Sequence record: OQ561750
From: Escherichia phage LHE83
DNA length: 64,000 bases
Direction: 5' to 3' (one strand)
Positions 1 to 62,211 of the stretch are shown piece after piece; the first letter of the stretch is position 1, and the number at the start of each line of letters is the position of its first letter. The position numbers and the translations under genes are program-made. The notes under the pieces were generated by a model. The model did not search any database, was not told where the DNA came from, and saw only the letters and a list, made by a program, of their open reading frames with translations.

Positions 1-16
1 CCTTTAAGGAATCCGT

Positions 17-613
17 ATGAAAACGTATAAAGAATTTATCGCCGAAGCTTCTGTAGGAAAGGTCCAAGGCATTAATAAAGATGAGTGGACTTACAAAGGA
101 AACGGCGTTGACAACCCAGGAAACGGTTTTGACGCTAAAACAGCTCCTATTGAACGGTATTTAGCTACAAAGGCTTCTGATTTTAAAGCTTTCGCCTGGG
201 AAGGACTTCGCTGGCGTAACGACCTAAATATTGAAGCTGATGGACTTAAATTTGCCCATATCCAAGATGTTGTTGCTAGTAACTTGGACGCAGCTTTTGT
301 TAAAGCTGACGGTGACCTTCGTCGCTGGAATTTAAAACTGTTCTCTAAACAGAAAGGTCCTGTATTTGTACCTAAAGCAGGTAAATGGACTATTGATAAT
401 AAATTGGCTAAGGCGGTCAACTTCGCCGGTCTTGAATTTGCCAAGCACAAATCAGCATGGAAAGGTCTCGATGCAATGACTTTCCGTAAAGAATTTGCCG
501 ATGTTATGGCTAAAGGCGGCTTTAAGGCAGAAATAGATACCTCTAAAGGTACGTTTAAAGACGCTAATATTCAGTACGCTTACGCCGTTGCTAATGCTGC
601 CCGTGGTAATTAA
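17..613 (+). CDS. ipIII: internal head protein IPIII-like
   Basis: ORF track; N-terminal MKTYKEFIAEA capsid-targeting motif shared by T4 internal proteins; length and sequence resemble T4 IPIII (memory). Confidence 0.8.
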   Translation: MKTYKEFIAEASVGKVQGINKDEWTYKGNGVDNPGNGFDAKTAPIERYLATKASDFKAFAWEGLRWRNDLNIEADGLKFAHIQDVVASNLDAAFVKADGDLRRWNLKLFSKQKGPVFVPKAGKWTIDNKLAKAVNFAGLEFAKHKSAWKGLDAMTFRKEFADVMAKGGFKAEIDTSKGTFKDANIQYAYAVANAARGN

Positions 614-6443: not shown

Positions 6444-6737
6444 ATGGATATTTTCCGTACAGCGGCTTGTATCCTTATGGCGGGATGTTTAAGCCCTACA
6501 GTTTCACTAGCAAATGACACCAACGATAAATTGATGGATGCATTTGCTAGTAGTGCGATGCCTGTTTATGCGCAAATGAGTAGACCTAGCATAAAGGCCT
6601 CCGAAGACTATTGGGCCTACCTTAATGCTTCTTGGAAGGTATCAAGTTGTCAGACTATAGAAGCGTGCTCAATTGAAGGTCGTGCCATCGGAGAGCGTTA
6701 TGCAAAACTAATGAAGGTGGAAGATGAAGTTCAATGA
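6444..6737 (+). CDS. rI: lysis inhibition regulator rI-like
   Basis: 97 aa; signal-anchor N-terminus; Cys pattern and size as T4 RI; sits between tk and the nrdC-region genes. Confidence 0.6.
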   Translation: MDIFRTAACILMAGCLSPTVSLANDTNDKLMDAFASSAMPVYAQMSRPSIKASEDYWAYLNASWKVSSCQTIEACSIEGRAIGERYAKLMKVEDEVQ

Positions 6738-8981: not shown

Positions 8982-9988
8982 GAACAGTTATGAAAGGCTA
9001 CTTCGGTAGCCACCTTTATGGAACAAGTACTCCAGAATCTGATGTCGATTTTAAAGAAATCTTTGTTCCACATCCGCGTGATATTCTGTTAGGTACGGCT
9101 ATGAACCATACCAACCTGAACACGAATAACACTGCTTCCAAAAACACCAAAGATGATGTAGACCATGAGCTTTACAGTCTGAAATATTTCTTTAAACTAG
9201 CGGCTGAAGGTGAAACCGTTGCTCTGGATATGCTTCACACTCCACCTGAACTAGTGGTTAAATCTGATTTACCTGATGTATGGAAATTTATCCAAGACAA
9301 CCGTTCTCGGTTCTATACAACCAACATGAAAGCCTATTTAGGGTACGTCCGTAAGCAAGCTTCTAAATATGGTGTTAAAGGTTCTCGTCTGGCTGCTCTG
9401 CGTGGTGTACTGGCAATCGTTAACCAGATTCCTGAACAGTGGATTGATTACCAAGAAGATGGTTCTACTAAACAACGTCGCACTAAGGTAGAAGATATCA
9501 AACATCGACTCCCTGAAAATGAGTTCTGTGAATGGGCATTCCATAACCATGAGAAAACAGGTCCTCAAACGTTCTATACTGTTCTCGGACGTAAATACCA
9601 AACCACTCTGTCATTAATCGAGCTCAAGCAATCTCTGAATAAGCTTGATGCCGAATATGGTGAACGTGCTCGTAAGGCTGAAGCTAACGAAGGTATTGAC
9701 TGGAAAGCTCTGAGCCATGCTTATCGTGCTGGTTATCAGTTGAAGGAAATCTATCAAACTGGTGACCTTCAATATCCTTTACGTACAGCGCCGTTTATCC
9801 TTGAAATCAAACAAGGGCTTCATGCTTTTAAAGATGTACAGGCCGAACTTGAAGCTATCGTTGATGAAGTCGAAACTAATGCTATCTGGGCCGCTAAGAA
9901 CGGTATGCCTGAGAAGGTAGACATGAAGTTCTGGGACAAGTTCGTTGAGCAGGTTTACCTAGAAAACCATAACTCGTATTATAAATGA
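8978..9988 (+). CDS. nucleotidyltransferase-fold protein (Pol-beta superfamily)
   Basis: N-terminal GSHLYGTSTPESDVDFKEIFV matches the G-S...D-x-D nucleotidyltransferase motif; ATGA overlap start. Confidence 0.55.
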   Translation: MRTVMKGYFGSHLYGTSTPESDVDFKEIFVPHPRDILLGTAMNHTNLNTNNTASKNTKDDVDHELYSLKYFFKLAAEGETVALDMLHTPPELVVKSDLPDVWKFIQDNRSRFYTTNMKAYLGYVRKQASKYGVKGSRLAALRGVLAIVNQIPEQWIDYQEDGSTKQRRTKVEDIKHRLPENEFCEWAFHNHEKTGPQTFYTVLGRKYQTTLSLIELKQSLNKLDAEYGERARKAEANEGIDWKALSHAYRAGYQLKEIYQTGDLQYPLRTAPFILEIKQGLHAFKDVQAELEAIVDEVETNAIWAAKNGMPEKVDMKFWDKFVEQVYLENHNSYYK

Positions 9989-11485: not shown

Positions 11486-12010
11486 ATGAACGCTAAAGAT
11501 ATTTTTTCACTGATTAATTTCAACAACGGTAATTTCAAATCTGAAAAACAAAGCAAGTTCTTTAATGATGTTGCTTGTGGTAATGAGATTACCGTATCTG
11601 GAGGAGAGATTTACAAAAGCCGTTGGAACTGGATTGTTATCATCGATTCAGTTGGTATTGTAGAGCTCTATAAAAACACTAACAAAAAACGTACTCTTCA
11701 CTGGAGTCGTGAAACCAATCAAGCTTATCAAGCTGAACGTAACAAACGTTTAATGCCTACCGAATCCGACCTGGCAAACGTTAAATCTGATATCGCTTAT
11801 TTCGATAATCTGATTGCAGAGGAACAAGCGGTTATTGATAAGTTTGACGAAATCAAAGCTTGTAAAGAGATTCCTGAATTTATGCGGGAATCAGTAAATG
11901 AACAGTACGCCCTCACTTCAGGTCGTATCGAGCAGTACAAATCGCAACGAGCTGAACGCCAAGCTCTGCTTCAGAAATTTGAAGAGCGTTTAAAGACGGT
12001 TCTCGCATAA
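11486..12010 (+). CDS. hypothetical protein with C-terminal coiled-coil tail
   Basis: ORF track. Confidence 0.5.
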   Translation: MNAKDIFSLINFNNGNFKSEKQSKFFNDVACGNEITVSGGEIYKSRWNWIVIIDSVGIVELYKNTNKKRTLHWSRETNQAYQAERNKRLMPTESDLANVKSDIAYFDNLIAEEQAVIDKFDEIKACKEIPEFMRESVNEQYALTSGRIEQYKSQRAERQALLQKFEERLKTVLA

Positions 12011-12073
12011 ACGCTTTATACCAAGGATGGTATAATGGTTTTAGGTTCTTAATTACTTACTGAGGAAATTATT

Positions 12074-12916
12074 ATGTCACAGGCAATTAATCAAATTCGT
12101 TCTGAAGTTAAAAAAGTTGTTAAATTTGGTCGTATTCCGAGTTCTAAAGAAGTGGTTGAAAAGGTTCTATATATGATGTGGGACAAGTTCAATGTTTGTA
12201 CTGTTAAAGATGACTTCACTAAAATCTTTGATAAGACCAGGTCGTTTACCTTAGAAGACCGGGTCATGAAAACTCTTCGTAAAACAGGTATGTTGTCTCG
12301 TGCTAATGCCAAAATTATTCTTAAAAATTATAACAAAGGCTACGACCTCTATGGTCGTTTAATCCCGGCGATGTCATTTGACGAAGTGGTTCAAGACCTT
12401 CATGCCAACCAACGACGTCTACTAGCACTAGGTGCTCGCCTTGCAAAAGGTCAAGATAAACAAATGACCTTTAAGACTAATGGTTCAGGTGATTGGATTA
12501 TCTTTAGTATTGTTAACCACCCCAGAAATGAAAATGAGTATACCATTTCAACTTTTAGTGGTTGTCAATATGACAACTGGAAGTTCCATCTCCGATTAGC
12601 CTTGTCCGAATTAGAACAGCACGGTGTTCTTGGTTTTGGTGATGCCGAAACTGGGGTGGGTCAGCGTATTAAACTTTATAAAATTAAAGACCTGGCTGAA
12701 GAGCATTCAGAACAAGCTCCTAAACCGGAACCTGTGCCAGTGCGCAGCAATGAGAAGCATCAAGCCCAGATTGAGTATTTTAGCAATTTGCTTACTTGCT
12801 TGAATGTTACAATTCAACAACAAGATGATGAGATTTTCCGACTCTCTGGTCTGAATGCTAAAGCCAAGGCTGAACGTCAAAAATATATCGATATCCTAAA
12901 TCTTCTTAAGGATTAA
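12074..12916 (+). CDS. hypothetical protein with C-terminal coiled-coil tail
   Basis: ORF track; start cassette duplicated at 19250-19283. Confidence 0.55.
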   Translation: MSQAINQIRSEVKKVVKFGRIPSSKEVVEKVLYMMWDKFNVCTVKDDFTKIFDKTRSFTLEDRVMKTLRKTGMLSRANAKIILKNYNKGYDLYGRLIPAMSFDEVVQDLHANQRRLLALGARLAKGQDKQMTFKTNGSGDWIIFSIVNHPRNENEYTISTFSGCQYDNWKFHLRLALSELEQHGVLGFGDAETGVGQRIKLYKIKDLAEEHSEQAPKPEPVPVRSNEKHQAQIEYFSNLLTCLNVTIQQQDDEIFRLSGLNAKAKAERQKYIDILNLLKD

Positions 12917-15606: not shown

Positions 15607-15870
15607 ATGTTTAAAGTTTATGGTTATGATTCAAATATTCACCGTTGTGTTTTCTGTGATAATGCCAAACGTCTGCTTGATGTTAAGAAACAACCTTACG
15701 AATTCATTAACGTGATGCCGGAAAAAGGCGTATTTGATGATGAGAAGATTGCTCAACTCCTGGCTGCGCTTGGTCGCGAATCTCAAATCGGTTTGACCAT
15801 GCCGCAAGTATTTGCCCCTGATGGAAGTCATATCGGTGGCTTTGACCAACTGCGAGCGTATTTCAAATGA
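15607..15870 (+). CDS. nrdC: glutaredoxin/thioredoxin NrdC
   Basis: 87 aa; VFCDNAKRLL...QVFAPDGSHIGGFDQL near-identical to T4 NrdC from memory. Confidence 0.85.
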   Translation: MFKVYGYDSNIHRCVFCDNAKRLLDVKKQPYEFINVMPEKGVFDDEKIAQLLAALGRESQIGLTMPQVFAPDGSHIGGFDQLRAYFK

Positions 15871-16028
15871 TTGAATTAATGTTGGTTGTTTTGTATCTTA
15901 TCATCGGTATTGGTTATGCTAAGACCCTAGCTAAATTAGATGATTCAGGTGACTTTTGTTGGTGGTTGACGTCTATGATTTGTTGGCCTTTATTTCTGGT
16001 TGGTGCTTCATTCTGGAACTTCAAATGA
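15867..16028 (+). CDS. hypothetical small membrane protein (53 aa)
   Basis: Read by eye; ATGA overlap with the nrdC stop; hydrophobic; below the track length cutoff. Confidence 0.35.
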   Translation: MIELMLVVLYLIIGIGYAKTLAKLDDSGDFCWWLTSMICWPLFLVGASFWNFK

Positions 16029-16333
16029 TTGAATTAAACGAACAAACCATTTTTCTAGGTGATGGTACCGAAGATGACCTGGAATATAAACTATACGAAT
16101 ATATGGTTTGGTTGGCTAAAGCAGAAGGTATAGACTTTGCTGTAGCCCATCCATATGGCGAGAACACTGTTGTAATCGGCGGCACCGCTTACGAAGTCCA
16201 ATGGCAATACGTTGGCCTTGAATCTGAAGAATTTGAAGAAGATGAACACGGTGATTGGCATCCAGTCGGTCCTTGGTACTGGGAACACGGTGAACCTGAT
16301 TTTGAAGTAAGTAGTTGGTGGTGTGACCGTTAA
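16025..16333 (+). CDS. hypothetical acidic protein
   Basis: Internal ATG (MIELNEQ) of track ORF 15956..16333; ATGA overlap. Confidence 0.5.
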   Translation: MIELNEQTIFLGDGTEDDLEYKLYEYMVWLAKAEGIDFAVAHPYGENTVVIGGTAYEVQWQYVGLESEEFEEDEHGDWHPVGPWYWEHGEPDFEVSSWWCDR

Positions 16334-19000: not shown

Positions 19001-19201
19001 ATGAATCCTGAATCTAAATTATCACAGCGAATTGCTGAAGCTCGTCGTCAGTTCTTTGAAAATATGATAGCCCAAGGTATTGATGACGAAGTTTTTCTGA
19101 ACTGGTTTTGGAACCACAAATATTCAAGTTGTTCAGGCGCTTTATTAATTTCAGCTGCATCTATGTACGAAGGCTGGAAAGGTGCAATGAGTCAAAAATA
19201 G
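19001..19201 (+). CDS. hypothetical protein
   Basis: ORF track. Confidence 0.5.
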   Translation: MNPESKLSQRIAEARRQFFENMIAQGIDDEVFLNWFWNHKYSSCSGALLISAASMYEGWKGAMSQK

Positions 19202-19232
19202 TTTACAAACTCTTGGGACCAGAGTATAATGG
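19201..19232 (+). promoter_or_regulatory. early promoter
   Basis: GTTTAC then 18 nt then TATAAT; GGACC/GGTCC inverted repeat flanks the -10. Confidence 0.5.
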
Positions 19233-19268
19233 TCCTACGGATTATAAATTTTAACTGAGGAAATTATT

Positions 19269-19598
19269 ATGTCACAAGCTATTAAAAACGTACTGAACTC
19301 TTTCGCTTTCGATAAAGTAAACGAACTGATGAAAACTGGTTTTGTAACTCCTCAGGTTCTTGACCAATGGGTTGCTGAACTGTTACCTATCATGCACTCT
19401 AAAGACCAGAAAATTGGTAAGAATGGTATTCGTGAAATCCTGGTTCAATATATCCTTGATGAATTCGATGTCGCTGCCTTTGGTGTCGAATCCAAAGCTT
19501 GGCACCCAGGTGAAATCACGGATAAAACTATCCGTCGTATGAAAAACCAACGTAAGAAAAAATTCGTTGACCTGAAAATTGTTAAGGCAGCGAAATGA
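19269..19598 (+). CDS. hypothetical protein
   Basis: ORF track; start cassette about 30 nt near-identical to that of 12074. Confidence 0.55.
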   Translation: MSQAIKNVLNSFAFDKVNELMKTGFVTPQVLDQWVAELLPIMHSKDQKIGKNGIREILVQYILDEFDVAAFGVESKAWHPGEITDKTIRRMKNQRKKKFVDLKIVKAAK

Positions 19599-26916: not shown

Positions 26917-26942
26917 GTAAAAACAAACCTGAGGAAATTAAT

Positions 26943-27902
26943 ATGCTTACAGTAAACAATAATGAATTCATGTGGGAACAGAAATATCGTCCAGGTACTT
27001 TATCTGAGTGTATTCTGCCTGCGCATGATAAAGAAACCCTCCAAGCCATTGTTAATAAGGGCCTAATCCCTAACATTATCCTAGTCTCTGCTTCACCAGG
27101 CACAGGTAAAACTACCGTAGCTAAAGCATTGTGTGCTGATACAAATTCAGACATGTTGTTTGTTAACGGTTCTGACTGCCGTATTGATTTCGTTCGTAAT
27201 GAACTTACTCGTTTTGCATCTTCCAAATCTATCGAAGGTAAGCGTAAGGTAATTGTTATCGACGAATTCGACCGCGCCGGTGTTGCTGAAGCTCAACGTC
27301 ACCTTCGTTCGTTCTTAGAAGCCTATTCCTCAAACTGTTCTGTAATTATTACAGCAAACAATATTGATGGTATTATCGGCCCACTTCAATCCCGTTGTCG
27401 TGTTATTAAATTTGGTGAAGCCACTCCAGCTGACCAAACATCCATGATGAAAGAAATGATTCATCGTGCTGTAGCGATCTGTAAAAACGAAAATATCGAA
27501 GTCGAAGACCTTAAAGTTATTGCTGCTTTAGTTAAACAAAACTTTCCTGACTTCCGTAAAACAGTTAACCAACTGGACCGTTACTCATCCAGTGGTAAAA
27601 TCGATACAGGCATTTTGAGTATTGTAATGAATACCAATTCGCCTATCGATGAAGTAGTGGCTGCACTTAAAGATAAAAACTTTAAAGAACTCCGTGCATT
27701 AGCTCCACGTCATGTCAACGATTATTCCAACTTTATTATGTCGCTGGCTAACGAACTCTATGGTAAATTGCCTGGGCCAAGCATTGTTAGAATGTACGAA
27801 ATTGTCGGTGAAAATAACCAATACCACGGTATTGCGGCTAACCCAGAAATTCACATGACTTATCTGTTCATCCAACTTGCTCTGGAGCTCCAATGGCTAT
27901 AA
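26943..27902 (+). CDS. 44: clamp-loader ATPase gp44
   Basis: 319 aa; SPGTGKTT Walker A, VIDEFDR, SRC motif; near-identical to T4 gp44 from memory. Confidence 0.9.
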   Translation: MLTVNNNEFMWEQKYRPGTLSECILPAHDKETLQAIVNKGLIPNIILVSASPGTGKTTVAKALCADTNSDMLFVNGSDCRIDFVRNELTRFASSKSIEGKRKVIVIDEFDRAGVAEAQRHLRSFLEAYSSNCSVIITANNIDGIIGPLQSRCRVIKFGEATPADQTSMMKEMIHRAVAICKNENIEVEDLKVIAALVKQNFPDFRKTVNQLDRYSSSGKIDTGILSIVMNTNSPIDEVVAALKDKNFKELRALAPRHVNDYSNFIMSLANELYGKLPGPSIVRMYEIVGENNQYHGIAANPEIHMTYLFIQLALELQWL

Positions 27903-28471: not shown

Positions 28472-28834
28472 ATGATTGAAATTACTCTGAAACAACCTGA
28501 AGACTTCTTGAAAGTTAAAGAGACCCTAACTCGTATGGGTATCGCTAATAATAAAGAAAAGAAACTATATCAATCCTGTCACATTCTGCAAAAGCAAGGG
28601 CTATACTATATCGTCCACTTTAAAGAGATGTTGCGTATGGATGGCCGCCAAGTTGATATCGATGGTGAAGACTATCAACGTCGAGATTCAATTGCCCAGC
28701 TTCTTAAGGAGTGGGGACTGATTGATATCGTAGACGACTCTGAGCTGTTCGAAATCACTAATAATTTCCGTGTCATTTCCTTTAAGCAGAAAAATGACTG
28801 GGAACTACTGTCTAAGTATACCATCGGTAATTAA
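28472..28834 (+). CDS. regA: translational repressor RegA
   Basis: MIEITLKQPEDFLKVKETLTRMGIANNKEKKLYQSCHILQK near-identical to T4 RegA. Confidence 0.85.
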   Translation: MIEITLKQPEDFLKVKETLTRMGIANNKEKKLYQSCHILQKQGLYYIVHFKEMLRMDGRQVDIDGEDYQRRDSIAQLLKEWGLIDIVDDSELFEITNNFRVISFKQKNDWELLSKYTIGN

Positions 28835-32144: not shown

Positions 32145-32285
32145 AAATAATTATTTTATTTCTTATAATGACTGCCTTTACCATTTATTGGGCAGTGGCA
32201 ATTCCGCCAATGATTCCGACACTCATCATTGGATGGATTATTCTTATAGCACAAATTAAGTATAACTGTTTTAATTGAGGATATT

Positions 32286-32786
32286 ATGAAAAAGTTAATT
32301 ATCGCAATGAGTATGCTCCTATCAGGTTGCGCGGTCCAATATGGTGATACAGTTTCGGCTGATGAAGTTGGTAAAGCTCGTATCGCAGCTGAACAGAAAC
32401 AATTCGATGGCGAAATGAAATTCCGTGCAGGTTCTGGACTTGTGTACACCCGAGCTAATAATCAATGCGGTAATAACTGTGCAAAATATGCTCAACAAGA
32501 AATCGAATTCCAACGTGAACAAGAGTCCAAGCGTGAAGCGGTACTAGCCAAACACCAGGCAGAAATGAAGCGTCAAGATGATTTGTACAAAAAGCAGAAA
32601 CTGTATGCGATGTGCGTAAACCATATCAATCTACAGATTTCCATCCACGAGGCTCGTTATTACGAAATGCTCGAAACCGAGAGCTTCGGTAAAGCTCGTG
32701 ATTATAAGAAACAAATCGATAAGCTCAAGACCAAAGCACCGGCGGCAATAGAACAGTGTATTGAAATCGGTAAAGATAAGATTTAA
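32286..32786 (+). CDS. hypothetical lipoprotein
   Basis: Signal peptide with LSGC lipobox; charged helical remainder. Confidence 0.55.
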   Translation: MKKLIIAMSMLLSGCAVQYGDTVSADEVGKARIAAEQKQFDGEMKFRAGSGLVYTRANNQCGNNCAKYAQQEIEFQREQESKREAVLAKHQAEMKRQDDLYKKQKLYAMCVNHINLQISIHEARYYEMLETESFGKARDYKKQIDKLKTKAPAAIEQCIEIGKDKI

Positions 32787-32846: not shown

Positions 32847-34520
32847 ATGAAAAAGGTTGTTATTTTAGGCGCGGGTCTTGGCTCACGGTTGTATCCAATT
32901 ACCAACGAAATCCCGAAGGTACTGGTTAACTACAAACAACATACTGTATTAAAACATTTGTATGATTTGTATAGTAATCAATCAGATGAAATTATTCTGG
33001 TTATTCACAGCAAATTTAACGACCTCGTTAAAGGCTATATTAAATCCATTAACATGATTAATAGTGATAAGCCTAAATTCACTATTCGTAACGTTGATGT
33101 TGCCAATGGTTCGGCTCATGCTATCGATTGCATTGCCGAAGATATCATTGGGCACAATGTCTTGTTTAACTGGTGTGATATTATTCCTGAAGGTCATAAA
33201 GTTGAGTGGGATAACGACTACTGTTATACCTATGGGACCGACTGTCGTTTTACATTTGAAGAACCGTACTTGCGTGAAATTGGTACCGGTGGTGGCGTAG
33301 TTGGCTTGTATCAGGTGGCTAATTGGACAGGTTTCGACCGTTCTAATTATGGTGAAGACCTTGCTGACAACCTGGATTCAATGGTCCATTTGACTGAACG
33401 TAAGTTAGACTTTGTAGTTGATGTTGGTGACAAACTGAAACTGGCTAAGGCCCATGAAGATTCTGAAATTAACCGTGAATTTAATAAATTAGAGTTCACT
33501 GAGAATCTAGCTATTAAAGTACCTACAAACGAATTAGGTAAAGAAATCCAATCTAAAGAAATCAATTGGTACAATTCTATTGATTCTGAATTCGTTCCTA
33601 GCATTGTAGACTTTGCTCCAGGTGAATTCATTAAAATGGAACGTATCTTTGGTCGAACCATGGCAGATGCCTACCGGTTTATGTCTAAAGAAACTAAAGT
33701 CCTAATGGTTTATAAGGTTATTAGTGCATTACGTTCGTTCGGTGGAACTATCGATAATCCGTCCGATGAGCAATGGTATTCTGATGTTAAGAAAGAAGTA
33801 TTGGACAAGGTCCTTATTCGTAATGCTTCTATTGCCGGATTGATTGAAGGCTTTGCTCCACAGGGTATTACCCATGTTAACGACTTCAAGGTAGGCGACC
33901 CAGAAAAACTTCTTCGTCACGCCTTAGAAATTCTGTCTGAACATAAAGAACCGTACCAACTTATTCATGGCGACCCGCACTACAGTAATATTATGTTGTC
34001 GGACGAAGGTAATATTAAAATCATCGACCCACGTGGTTATTTTGGTAATAGTTCTAAAGGCCCTGCGATTTATGATGAAGCTAAGGTGCTTTATTCTATC
34101 GATGGTTATGACAAATTTAACTCTGACCCTCTATGGGGTGGCTTAACTCGTAACGGAACTCGTGTATTCGTTGATATTGAAAAGGTTATGCCTTTAGATG
34201 ATATTCCGATGTGTACATTTAAGCACAAGCTCTGGATTGCCGTTATTTGGATGGCATTGGCAGGTTACTTTAAAAATAACCCTCTGAAAGCTCTGGGCGC
34301 TTATTACAATGGGCTATATCAACTGAGTGTGCTGCTGAAGCGGCATCCTCGTAAGCGTAAGCTTATCACAGGTGAATTCGTTGATGAAGTTCGCGACCCT
34401 ATCACGGCTCAAATTATCACTCGTTGTCCTGATAAGTGGGTTTTGCTTGACCAGGAAACTGGTGTAAAATATAAACCTACAGGTTCTACCGAACTCCACA
34501 AACAATGGAAGAAAATTTAA
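32847..34520 (+). CDS. bifunctional nucleotidyltransferase / kinase (LicC- or MurU-like N-terminus, APH/choline-kinase-like C-terminus)
   Basis: ATG after GAGGA Shine-Dalgarno; N-terminal KVVILGAGLGSRLYPIT sugar-phosphate nucleotidyltransferase motif; C-terminal IHGDPHYSNIML...IIDPRGY kinase catalytic-loop pattern. Confidence 0.7.
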   Translation: MKKVVILGAGLGSRLYPITNEIPKVLVNYKQHTVLKHLYDLYSNQSDEIILVIHSKFNDLVKGYIKSINMINSDKPKFTIRNVDVANGSAHAIDCIAEDIIGHNVLFNWCDIIPEGHKVEWDNDYCYTYGTDCRFTFEEPYLREIGTGGGVVGLYQVANWTGFDRSNYGEDLADNLDSMVHLTERKLDFVVDVGDKLKLAKAHEDSEINREFNKLEFTENLAIKVPTNELGKEIQSKEINWYNSIDSEFVPSIVDFAPGEFIKMERIFGRTMADAYRFMSKETKVLMVYKVISALRSFGGTIDNPSDEQWYSDVKKEVLDKVLIRNASIAGLIEGFAPQGITHVNDFKVGDPEKLLRHALEILSEHKEPYQLIHGDPHYSNIMLSDEGNIKIIDPRGYFGNSSKGPAIYDEAKVLYSIDGYDKFNSDPLWGGLTRNGTRVFVDIEKVMPLDDIPMCTFKHKLWIAVIWMALAGYFKNNPLKALGAYYNGLYQLSVLLKRHPRKRKLITGEFVDEVRDPITAQIITRCPDKWVLLDQETGVKYKPTGSTELHKQWKKI

Positions 34521-40635: not shown

Positions 40636-40657
40636 ATCAACTACCGAGGAGAACATT

Positions 40658-40951
40658 ATGAAAAAGTTATTAATCGCAGCAATTCTTGCCGTAGCATCAT
40701 GTGGTACAGCTCCAGTTACTGCTGGACTTGATAAAGACCTTTGTGAATGGTCTATGACTGCAGACCAAGAATCGGTCGAACATCAGATTTATGCTGATAT
40801 CATGAACATCACTAAACGTGACCGCCCTGATATGGTTAAAGAAGTGTCAGACCAATTGGCTTCAAGCGGCGTTATGCAGTATAACTATGTTCTGTATTGT
40901 GACGCTAATTTCGATAACAAAAACATCGTTAAAGAGGTGACAGGTGAATAA
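40658..40951 (+). CDS. sp: Spackle (periplasmic superinfection-exclusion protein)
   Basis: 97 aa; signal peptide; DKDLCEWSMTADQ...GVMQYNYVLYCD near-identical to T4 Sp from memory. Confidence 0.75.
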   Translation: MKKLLIAAILAVASCGTAPVTAGLDKDLCEWSMTADQESVEHQIYADIMNITKRDRPDMVKEVSDQLASSGVMQYNYVLYCDANFDNKNIVKEVTGE

Positions 40952-41776: not shown

Positions 41777-41789
41777 AGGCCAGGAGCCT

Positions 41790-41951
41790 ATGAAATCTTT
41801 TAAAGAAGTTATGAACGAAGATATGGTCGCAGGCGATGCAGGTGGTAATCCTACTGCTATTGCCTCCGGAACTACCTCAGGCGCAGTCGTCAATAAAGGG
41901 CCTGAACAAATCCCATCTAAAAAGCGTAAAGAAAAATCCGAAAACGAATGA
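41790..41951 (+). CDS. hypothetical small Gly/Ala-rich protein (53 aa)
   Basis: Read by eye; AGGAG Shine-Dalgarno; below the track length cutoff. Confidence 0.4.
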   Translation: MKSFKEVMNEDMVAGDAGGNPTAIASGTTSGAVVNKGPEQIPSKKRKEKSENE

Positions 41952-60850: not shown

Positions 60851-60995
60851 GTAGCAAAATGTGGTGCCTTATTTGGTTGACCTGTATCCCAGTGATTTGC
60901 GTATGTTTTAGTTTATTGTTGTGAAAATTGGCATAAAACAGTGTACATCTCCATTAATCATGATATTATAGACCTATCAACTAATGGAGATGATT

Positions 60996-61106
60996 ATGAA
61001 AAACTTACTTAAAGCAATTTGGAACATGTTTGTGTTGTTAATGGTATTGAGCATTTTCCCAATCGTTTTTATGATTGACCATGTACGTGTATTCTTTAAT
61101 TTCTGA
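60996..61106 (+). CDS. hypothetical small membrane peptide (36 aa)
   Basis: Read by eye; follows the promoter cassette at 60941-60990. Confidence 0.35.
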   Translation: MKNLLKAIWNMFVLLMVLSIFPIVFMIDHVRVFFNF

Positions 61107-61339: not shown

Positions 61340-61684
61340 ATGTCTAAATTATTTTTTGGTAATCGCAACATTATGTTCTTTAAACAACTCAGCCTCCAAG
61401 ATGCATCGGTGGCATTCAATCAAAGTATGATTCCCGGTGTAGATTCAAAAATTATGACGAGTGCTGATTTCGTTTTCGTTCAAGACCCAGAAACAGGCTT
61501 TTATCGGTTCATTAAATTTCGTATGAGTATGGACCCAGGTTATCATAGTGCTTACTACGTGAGTTATGAAAACGTTATCAAAGAATTACGTGATACCTAT
61601 GGACGCGCTTTGAACCCGCTGAACAAGGTTTATAATGCTTCTTTTTATACGAGCGGATTTATTTTAGAACAGCTACAAAAATAG
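61340..61684 (+). CDS. hypothetical protein
   Basis: Internal ATG after AAGGAAAAT Shine-Dalgarno of track ORF 61316. Confidence 0.5.
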   Translation: MSKLFFGNRNIMFFKQLSLQDASVAFNQSMIPGVDSKIMTSADFVFVQDPETGFYRFIKFRMSMDPGYHSAYYVSYENVIKELRDTYGRALNPLNKVYNASFYTSGFILEQLQK

Positions 61685-61712
61685 TTTACAACCTCGAGAA
61701 TCGTGTTATAAT
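61684..61712 (+). promoter_or_regulatory. early promoter
   Basis: GTTTAC then 17 nt then GTTATAAT; inverted repeat around the -10. Confidence 0.5.
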
Positions 61713-61761
61713 GGTTCTCGTTGACTGGATAACAAAACATTAATCTACTGAGGAAATTGAT

Positions 61762-62211
61762 ATGAATACTTATATGACTCGCCGTAACGTTCTGTCTGCT
61801 GGTGCTACTACTGTTGCTTATGTTAAGAACGGTGAATACCAAAATGGTAAACCTTCTAAAGAAATCTCTGCTCAGCCAGGCTTCTACTTCTTTGTTAAAG
61901 GTGGTGCTGATTCTCGTGTCGTAGCGGCTCGTTTTTATGTCGGTAATCAACGTTCGGCCCAAGGGCTCGACGGTATCGTGGCTAACATTCGTAAGAAACG
62001 TTCTCAATCAGCTCGCACTATGGCAGTGAACGGTGTTGTGTATGAAGTTCTTTATGTACCGGCTTCTAAGATGAAACCCCTGACTACAGGTTTTGGTAAG
62101 GGTCAAATTGCAATGGCTTTCACTCGTAATCATAGTTCCGACCTCCAGACACTGGAAGAAATGAACCGTATGTTGGCTGATAACTTTAAATTCATCCTGC
62201 AGGCTTACTAA
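61762..62211 (+). CDS. ndd: Ndd-like nucleoid disruption protein (tentative)
   Basis: 149 aa; position upstream of stp; FYVGNQRS...[12 protein letters not shown]...MLADNFKF recalled as Ndd-like; unverified. Confidence 0.5.

Follow-up and report, generated by a model that had tools for sequence, protein, structure and literature searches.

In the capsid-targeting leader of T-even internal proteins, unrelated proteins have in common a promoter, a ribosome-binding site and the first ~10 codons (MKTYQEFIAE), which encode a functional targeting peptide that is cleaved; the genes concerned are clustered. Examples stand at 17, 655 and 1469 in the 64,000-nucleotide stretch of Escherichia phage LHE83 (record OQ561750) analysed here, hereafter the window. 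A second system in which start regions recur is that of the promoter-early stem-loop (PeSL) cassettes of T4-type phages, with T-even analogues at internal-protein loci (PMC2839356, PMC4122927); PMC2839356 cites T4 recombination as working on patches of less than 50 bp. A third comprises the operators of the translational repressor RegA, which overlap the AUG as well as the bases that directly follow; gene 44 is the classic operator in T4 and RB69, rIIB and dexA are operators as well, and the SELEX consensus for T4 RegA is AAAATTGTTATGTAA / aaAAUUGUUAUGUAA (PMC3014915).

The near-identical start regions of the nrdC.6 and 55.2 homologues in the window (Table 1) resemble each of these systems in part. 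As with the capsid-targeting leader, unrelated proteins have a start region and first codons in common, but only four residues are involved, and these are accounted for by chance. As with PeSL cassettes, the unit upstream of 55.2 consists of an early promoter together with a predicted stem-loop, is repeated ahead of unrelated genes, and lies within a hyperplastic region of small ORFs. However, what nrdC.6 and 55.2 have in common is confined to the final 18 nt, with SD, spacer and AUG, and to 14 bases of coding sequence, the nrdC.6 copy stands behind a candidate MotA-type middle promoter rather than an early one, the breakpoints by which PeSLs are defined (insertion, deletion or replacement) occur at neither copy among the phages compared, and the stems are richer in A/T than the GGGG/CCCC stems of RB49. 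As with the RegA operators of T4 and RB69, the stretch is A/U-rich and weakly structured, has a 5' A tract, overlaps the AUG and agrees with the SELEX consensus at 12 of 15 positions; regA itself is encoded in the window, and the stretch, a candidate operator, lies one mismatch from the phage's own gene 44 site.

Table 1 Coordinates of the start regions, promoters and genes discussed in the text.
Feature	Position in window	Strand	Sequence, parts or basis
Copy 1	12059..12090	+	ACTGAGGAAATTATT + ATG TCA CAG GCA ATT AA; SD GAGG 12062-12065, 8-nt A/T spacer, start codon 12074, codons 2-5 of the nrdC.6 homologue
Copy 2	19254..19285	+	ACTGAGGAAATTATT + ATG TCA CAA GCT ATT AA; SD GAGG 19257-19260, start codon 19269, codons 2-5 of the 55.2 homologue
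nrdC.6 candidate middle promoter	12009..12036	+	MotA-type box AAACGCTTTA 12009-18, 12-bp spacer, TATAAT 12031-36
nrdC.6 homologue	12074..12916	+	280 aa; JS98 curated annotation, tblastn
55.2 regulatory cassette	19193..19253	+	A-rich UP region, early promoter, hairpin, leader ACGGATTATAAATTTTA
55.2 predicted early promoter	19201..19230	+	GTTTACA 19201-07, 17 bp, TATAAT 19225-30; preceded by AAAAATA; promoter scan, 11/12
55.2 predicted hairpin	19215..19236	+	GGGACC/GGTCCT (19215-20, 19231-36), enclosing the -10
55.2 homologue	19269..19598	+	109 aa; JS98 curated annotation; DUF7570, Pfam PF24454, E = 1.7e-38
Gene 44 (clamp loader) ribosome-binding site	26928..26945	+	CCTGAGGAAATTAATATG; Pfam Gp44_lid, Gp44_C
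regA, translational repressor	28472..28834	+	Pfam PF01818, E = 5e-59
ndd-upstream cassette, looser third member	61676..61764	+	AAAAATAGTTTACAACCTC, hairpin around TATAAT, TGGATAACAAA, then ACTGAGGAAATTGATATG; repeat search

Two unrelated genes and their shared start region

Both regions match Dhakavirus genomes (98.7% identity to QL01 and WG01, about 92% to JS98), and the window is that of a Dhakavirus, a JS98-like T4-type phage. Both genes are among the small prereplicative genes that make up the nrdC-to-55 block; gp45, gp44, gp62, RegA and gp43 are also encoded in the window, as are three further proteins that we take, from their translations, to be gp49, NrdC and gp55. By tblastn, some 1,000 phage records align with the 55.2 product from residue 1 onwards; its T4 counterpart, gp55.2, inhibits topoisomerase I of the host, is dose-sensitive and is toxic when over-expressed (PMC4396842). 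A Pfam scan of NrdC.6 returned no family, and its full-length alignments show 72% identity with VR26, 47% with T4 and 31% with JS09. A swap of the NrdC.6 N-terminal module, suggested by a T4 tblastn alignment that starts only at residue 58, was ruled out by global alignment, in which the N-terminus is diverged but orthologous (MS..IN...K..V) and T4 has a 21-aa insertion.

The two proteins were predicted to begin alike, with MSQAI, and to be otherwise unrelated, and this is borne out. Homology extending over the full length, beyond the shared N-terminus, was looked for by BLASTP and Pfam and none was found: no BLASTP alignment between NrdC.6 and gp55.2 is obtained at E <= 100, and DUF7570 stands on one side against no Pfam family on the other, so that full-length or hidden homology was rejected.

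The two copies are identical at 30 of 32 bases (28/30 over 12059-12088 vs 19254-19283, and 30/32 once the following AA is included), and their longest exact core is 23 nt, ACTGAGGAAATTATTATGTCACA. The near-identity of some 30 nt around two starts in the original prediction is thus real, whereas its coordinates, 12056 and 19251, lie 3 nt too early. The 30-nt pattern ACTGAGGAAATTATTATGTCACARGCWATT occurs two times and no more in the window, each time on the + strand (at 12059-12088 and at 19254-19283), and has no match in 100 dinucleotide-preserving shuffles. A repeat search of the window returns the pair as 41 nt at 85% (12050-12090 vs 19245-19285). The high identity ends sharply, at −15 on one side and at +17 on the other, and a −10 hexamer stands 37-38 nt upstream of each copy.

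When the 118 predicted starts of the window were compared all against all (positions −18 to +20, ATG excluded; 6,786 pairs), the nrdC.6/55.2 pair ranked first with 29/35, followed by a pair of internal-protein paralogues with 25/35. The same pair again ranked first of 36,046 in the complete genome of Dhakavirus LQ5 (269 starts). Across LQ5, the upstream part alone reaches at least 16/18 in 11 start pairs and the downstream part alone at least 13/17 in 36; identity upstream and identity downstream are each unexceptional, and only their joint occurrence in one pair is rare. For that joint occurrence, ~0.01 pairs are expected per genome in LQ5 if the two parts are independent, and ~1e-3 pairs per window as estimated from the pair-score distribution of the window, which makes the coincidence unlikely but not extreme for something picked by a genome scan. 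An independent position-specific null model (8e-6 expected pairs) was rejected: it underestimated the observed tail more than 10-fold. Start sites mix registers and cassette families, and the empirical pair distributions of the window and of LQ5 were used instead. Pairs with four residues in common after Met are expected at 0.33 in a window and at 1.7 in a genome of 270 genes, and one non-paralogous pair was observed; the sharing of MSQAI is within chance expectation.

Promoters, leaders and the age of the two starts

The box upstream of nrdC.6 agrees at 9 of 10 positions with the MotA consensus (a/t)(a/t)(a/t)TGCTTtA, which stands 12+/-1 bp from the −10 in T4 middle promoters (PMC2988021). 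This box takes the place of a −35, and an early (sigma-70-type) promoter was not found at the nrdC.6 copy. The candidate middle promoter is kept at the same locus in VR26, RZ, P479 and JS09, and a short predicted hairpin, TATACCA/TGGTATA, overlaps its −10. At 55.2, the predicted hairpin is kept via compensatory changes in JS09, VR26, PEi20 and a second cassette, at LQ5 33563; at the T4 locus, a terminator hairpin with a UUCG loop stands in its place. The regulatory regions of nrdC.6 and 55.2 are 70% identical over about 75 nt and 61% identical outside the 18-nt ribosome-binding site, and eight control early promoters of the window are 53-60% identical to the 55.2 cassette. The two regions appear to be of different classes, a middle promoter with a MotA box at nrdC.6 vs an early promoter with a hairpin at 55.2.

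To place these differences in time, start regions were extracted from T4, Mosigvirus JS09, the Dhakaviruses JS98, VR5, ESCO10, QL01, IME281 and 005, the Gapriverviruses VR26, RZ and P479, the Jiaodaviruses W2-7 and ValerieMcCarty05, Moonvirus Merlin and Kanagawavirus PEi20. Upstream of nrdC.6, CATAAACGCTTTA...TATAATGGTT is found in Gaprivervirus and Mosigvirus; upstream of 55.2, Mosig-, Gapriver- and Kanagawavirus have a hairpin followed by the GGATAATAAAATTTTAA leader. For both genes, promoter and leader are orthologous to those at the same locus in other genera. Gene order is likewise conserved (nrdC.8-nrdC.6 and 55.3-55.2-55.1 in Dhaka-, Gapriver- and Mosigvirus, the 55.x genes also in Tequatrovirus), and no natural deletion or duplication of the interval that separates the copies was seen among the database matches. 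Comparison with related phages, which the original prediction had proposed, finds a full-length NrdC.6 orthologue in T4, Mosigvirus and Gaprivervirus and both loci conserved; no gene was replaced at either of them.

The 55.2 start reads MSQAIKNVLNSFA, behind ACTGAGGAAATT..T and then ATG, in Dhaka-, Jiaoda-, Moon- and Kanagawavirus; in four genera the spacer ahead of the start has the form ttACTGAGGAAATT(a/g)(a/c)T and the N-terminus of gp55.2 is MSQAIKN, a version that is old. Diverged N-termini are found in T4 (MTIQI), JS09 (MSTKI) and Gaprivervirus (MTASI). At nrdC.6, the core of copy 1 is invariant in all Dhakaviruses examined. In Gaprivervirus RZ and P479, nrdC.6 reads TTGAGGAAATTATTATGTC(A/G)CAAGCAATTAAT and encodes MSQAIN; it is identical to the Dhakavirus form at 31 of 32 positions, so this version is older than the Dhakavirus-Gaprivervirus split. 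In the same two phages nrdC.6 has TTGAGGAAATTATTATGTCACAAGCAATTAAT, but 55.2 starts with ACTGAGGAATATATCATGACTGCATCT. The T4 form of nrdC.6, ATGTCA......ATTAAT (MSVVIN), is three substitutions from that of Dhakavirus.

Within codons 2-5, synonymous sites (TCA/TCT/TCG, CAA/CAG, GCA/GCT, ATT/ATC) vary independently at both loci, even within one genome (ESCO10), and about 10 Dhakavirus strains gave no signal of concerted evolution of the two copies. The conserved feature of these codons at each locus is the amino-acid sequence. The original prediction had read the shared start as a footprint of recombination that carried the first codons along; the orthology of promoters and leaders to their own loci, the conserved synteny, the independent synonymous sites and the chance level of MSQAI sharing all speak against it.

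A recurrent ribosome-binding site and its possible relation to RegA

The motif ACTGAGGA occurs 8 times in the window vs 1.7 expected, always on the + (coding) strand, and the 15-nt core GAGGAAATTATTATG occurs 11 times with at most 2 mismatches vs 0.27 expected; the gene 44 site, one mismatch from this core, is the nearest third site in the window. In LQ5, the exact 18-mer ACTGAGGAAATTATTATG is found a third time ahead of arn.4, and a one-base variant of it stands ahead of an ORF at 33563; these two share the upstream part only and no codons. The same ribosome-binding site precedes ndd in Kosakonia phage 305, and an unrelated, siphovirus-like contig carries 25 nt of the shared stretch, MSQA included, ahead of an unrelated tail gene. 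The 18-mer is identical in three Dhakavirus genes, and orthologues in sister genera differ from it by one to several bases, a pattern that could reflect homogenisation rather than selection. A further match at arn.4, ACAAGCT at a 1-nt offset, was considered as DNA-level copying and rejected, since MNKL (ATGAAYAAGYT) starts arn.4 in every genus.

The 55.2 unit as a whole (about 75 nt: early promoter, hairpin, leader and SD) is 86% identical to the one at LQ5 33563, where the ORF is unrelated to 55.2 and the match includes a compensatory stem change; identity is 79% with the cassette ahead of ndd in Kosakonia phage 305 and 63% with the ndd cassette of the window, behind which stands an ORF that we presume to be Ndd-like from the end of its translation. 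Membership of the 55.2 start region in a dispersed family of regulatory cassettes is thus supported by these alignments. To this extent the idea of regulatory cassettes in the original prediction was apt for 55.2, but it does not extend to nrdC.6, whose region outside the 18-nt site is no closer than the controls.

The RegA encoded in the window matches the T4 RegA structure 1REG over its full length (E = 4e-58). The sequence GAAATTATTATGTCA (GAAAUUAUUAUGUCA) agrees with the SELEX consensus at 12 of 15 positions, and its two copies rank 1-2 among the 118 starts of the window. To our knowledge, nrdC.6 and 55.2 are not among the documented RegA targets. RegA shut-off of both mRNAs would be plausible, although resemblance to a loose A/U-rich consensus should be taken as weak evidence for an operator. 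The local predicted folds of the two start regions are −3.8 and −5.3 kcal/mol and their predicted accessibility lies below the window median; mRNA accessibility was therefore set aside as an uninformative explanation, both sites being weakly structured yet ranking below the median. The RegB cleavage site GGAG is absent from the shared stretch.

Explanations of the shared start

Our preferred explanation, to which we assign a probability of about 0.6, is that each start belongs to a recurrent T4-type class of ribosome-binding sites, has been conserved independently of the other, and shares MSQAI with it by chance. Both stretches are translation initiation regions of unrelated, syntenic prereplicative genes, with a GAGG SD 8 nt before the AUG, a spacer of A/U only and an A/U-rich coding start. 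The class, (T)nnACTGAGGAAATTnnTATG, also stands ahead of arn.4, gene 44 and ndd, and of one more early ORF; purifying selection would have kept each copy at its own locus since before the genera split, and the identity of codons 2-5 would be a coincidence of two old, independently conserved N-termini. The element may provide strong, unstructured ribosome loading of the gene 44 type. Both mRNAs are probably also subject to RegA translational shut-off, given that the two copies are the best matches to the RegA consensus in the window and that the phage encodes RegA; such shut-off would suit gp55.2, which is toxic at high dose in T4. On this account the repeat, though real, is of an ordinary kind, and it is not a footprint of recent recombination. 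Against coincidence, a joint identity expected in ~0.01 pairs per genome makes pure chance uncomfortable unless the many pairs and windows inspected are allowed for, and 23 nt of contiguous exact identity is what a copied tract would look like.

The most serious alternative, which we consider unlikely, is an ancient short-tract gene conversion or template switch from 55.2 to nrdC.6, of about 25-32 nt (spacer and codons 2-4), in the ancestor of Dhakavirus and Gaprivervirus. It could have been anchored by pre-existing microhomology, with TGAGGAAA at the left end, ATGTCA between and ATTAA at the right end, after which both copies would have been kept by selection and Gaprivervirus would later have rewritten the 55.2 start. 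The direction follows from the 55.2 version being phylogenetically older and wider than that of nrdC.6; the opposite direction within Dhakavirus, hinted at by VR26, T4 and JS09, was rejected, as 55.2 of Jiaoda-, Moon- and Kanagawaviruses starts with MSQAIKN. Besides the improbable joint identity and the contiguous tract, identity may have been 32/32 in ancestral Dhakavirus (nrdC.6 of JS98 and 55.2 of VR5 differ at one base), the three substitutions in T4 nrdC.6 lie inside the flanking matches, T4 recombination is known on patches of this size, and a real event of such a kind is found 4 kb away. However, homology is absent outside the tract, so that ordinary homologous conversion gains no support, there is no present-day concerted evolution, MSQAI sharing does not exceed what chance predicts, the upstream 18-mer recurs at genes without common codons, and the arn.4 coding match is demonstrably coincidental; the event, if any, would fall on an unsampled deep branch.

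About as doubtful is a broader proposal that the 18-nt site was installed or homogenised at no fewer than three unrelated Dhakavirus prereplicative genes (nrdC.6, 55.2 and arn.4, with the one-base variant at a fourth), either as a RegA-type operator regulon or by short-tract copying between start regions, which at nrdC.6 and 55.2 would have reached the first codons. We regard it as improbable that convergent selection produced one operator, bound by RegA or another RNA-binding protein over the whole of −15 to +17, first codons included. The rank of the two copies against the SELEX consensus, a regA product close to the T4 protein, the way known RegA sites extend over the AUG and directly beyond it, the exact 18-mer found in three Dhakavirus genes but altered in the sister genera, and the toxicity of over-expressed gp55.2 would all fit such an operator. 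On the other hand, the amino acids of codons 2-5 are fixed whereas the wobble positions vary freely, from genus to genus and at either locus, which places the constraint downstream of the AUG on the protein rather than the RNA, and what arn.4 and LQ5 33563 share is limited to the upstream part. A recent PeSL-type recombination that placed one promoter-proximal cassette with its first codons before both genes, as the existence of a dispersed cassette family with 55.2 as a member and the PeSL literature might suggest, is effectively excluded by comparative data, given promoters of different classes that are each orthologous to their own locus, identity at control level outside the 18-nt site, genes and gene order conserved from T4 to Dhakavirus, and versions of both starts that predate the genus splits.

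By itself the finding matters little. Near-identical starts of unrelated T4-type genes seem to arise mostly from a constrained, recurrent leader and ribosome-binding-site class, and orthologues should be used to date repeats of this sort before they are called recombination scars. If the less favoured operator reading were true, nrdC.6, 55.2 and arn.4 would add two or three candidate targets to the RegA regulon; if copying were true, the pair could document micro-conversion of ribosome-binding sites as a phage route to retune expression.

Elsewhere in the window, an 18-bp repeat at 15862 and 16020 carries MIEL and is a clear case of the mechanism that the original prediction had envisaged for nrdC.6 and 55.2.

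Early-promoter cassettes before other genes

A set of 60-nt early-promoter cassettes with the layout GTTTACATCTCC(N)..TGATACTATAGACCTATCAACTnnnGGAGA..ATG recurs in the window (see table) and is a second subfamily resembling the PeSL (promoter-early stem-loop) cassettes of T4-type phages, separate from the cassette that precedes the 55.2 homologue. In these units, the interval between the −35 and −10 elements (e.g. ATCTCCTGTAG) and the Shine-Dalgarno region (CTACAGGAGAT) are inverted complements of each other; because of this complementarity, the ribosome-binding site could be sequestered in read-through transcripts but not in transcripts from the cassette's own promoter.

In the complete Dhakavirus genome LQ5 (OR677401.1), outside the window, a near-complete copy of the 55.2 promoter-hairpin-leader-SD cassette (positions 33490-33565, 86% identical) precedes an unrelated 99-aa ORF (MKELLENYIK...) and carries a compensatory change in the stem, GGGAGC/GCTCC vs GGGACC/GGTCC in the 55.2 cassette. 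The exact 18-nt site ACTGAGGAAATTATTATG is also found upstream of arn.4 in LQ5 (6533-6553, likewise outside the window), where it overlaps the motA stop codon; the sites at arn.4 of other genera differ from it.

Recurrent gene-start and promoter elements and their positions in the window
Element	Window positions
RBS and first ~11 codons, MKTY(Q/K)EFI(A/T)EA, common to three adjacent genes	4-48, 642-686, 1456-1500
GAG(G/A)A.ATTATGAAAAAGTTA.T.ATCGCA, common to three genes	32277-32306, 40649-40678, 60987-61016
Early-promoter cassettes, 60-nt units	3241, 7148, 11431, 40023, 47118, 60941
Early-promoter cassettes of the 60-nt family, looser copies	10024, 50482

A repeat at the nrdC junction

An exact 18-bp direct repeat, TTCAAATGATTGAATTAA, occurs at window positions 15862-15879 and 16020-16037 and is made up of two closing codons (FK), the ATGA in which stop and start overlap, and four opening codons (MIEL). 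The 158-bp unit that it flanks encodes a 53-aa hydrophobic ORF (15867-16028, MIELML...NFK*), which is absent from T4 and the Mosigvirus JS09 and present in Dhakavirus and Gaprivervirus; the same junction is unbroken in T4 (nrdC ...YFK* / MIELNEQIIFLGDG). This repeat is a real footprint of insertion or junction duplication, in which the first codons were carried along.

Other gene starts with shared first codons

The capsid-targeting leader of the T-even internal proteins is a known start cassette with functional first codons, and the three MKTY(Q/K)EFI(A/T)EA starts (window 4-48, 642-686 and 1456-1500) presumably represent such a leader; a weak fourth match to this start region lies at 41777-41821. 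The three genes that share the GAG(G/A)A element encode proteins starting with MKKLIIA, MKKLLIA or MKNLLKA, which are probably signal-peptide or lipoprotein-type N-termini, not copied cassettes. Among gene-start pairs of LQ5, that of 103335 and 130337 (the latter equivalent to window 18132) ranks second genome-wide, with a score of 28/35; this match may reflect paralogy between two small proteins, starting with MNIEDKEMQE and MTIQDKEIKA respectively, and not a shared cassette.

Start annotation and an unrelated contig

In the deposited record of phage ESCO10 (OM386655.1, minus strand, positions 9072 and 1530), nrdC.6 and 55.2 are each given a start at an upstream in-frame ATG located within the −10 region (MVLGSYLLTEEIIMSQ..., MDYKFKTEEIIMSQ...), which appears to be a mis-annotation; the product names across this block look shifted as well.

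On the unrelated siphovirus-like contig IMGVR_UViG_2814123064_000003 (5937-5973, minus strand), GAGGAAATTATTATGTCACAAGCAA is found upstream of a gene for a 135-aa protein (MSQATITING...), where 25 nt of the shared cassette are an independent occurrence. This gene is flanked by a major-tail-like ORF on one side and an 857-aa tape-measure-like ORF on the other.
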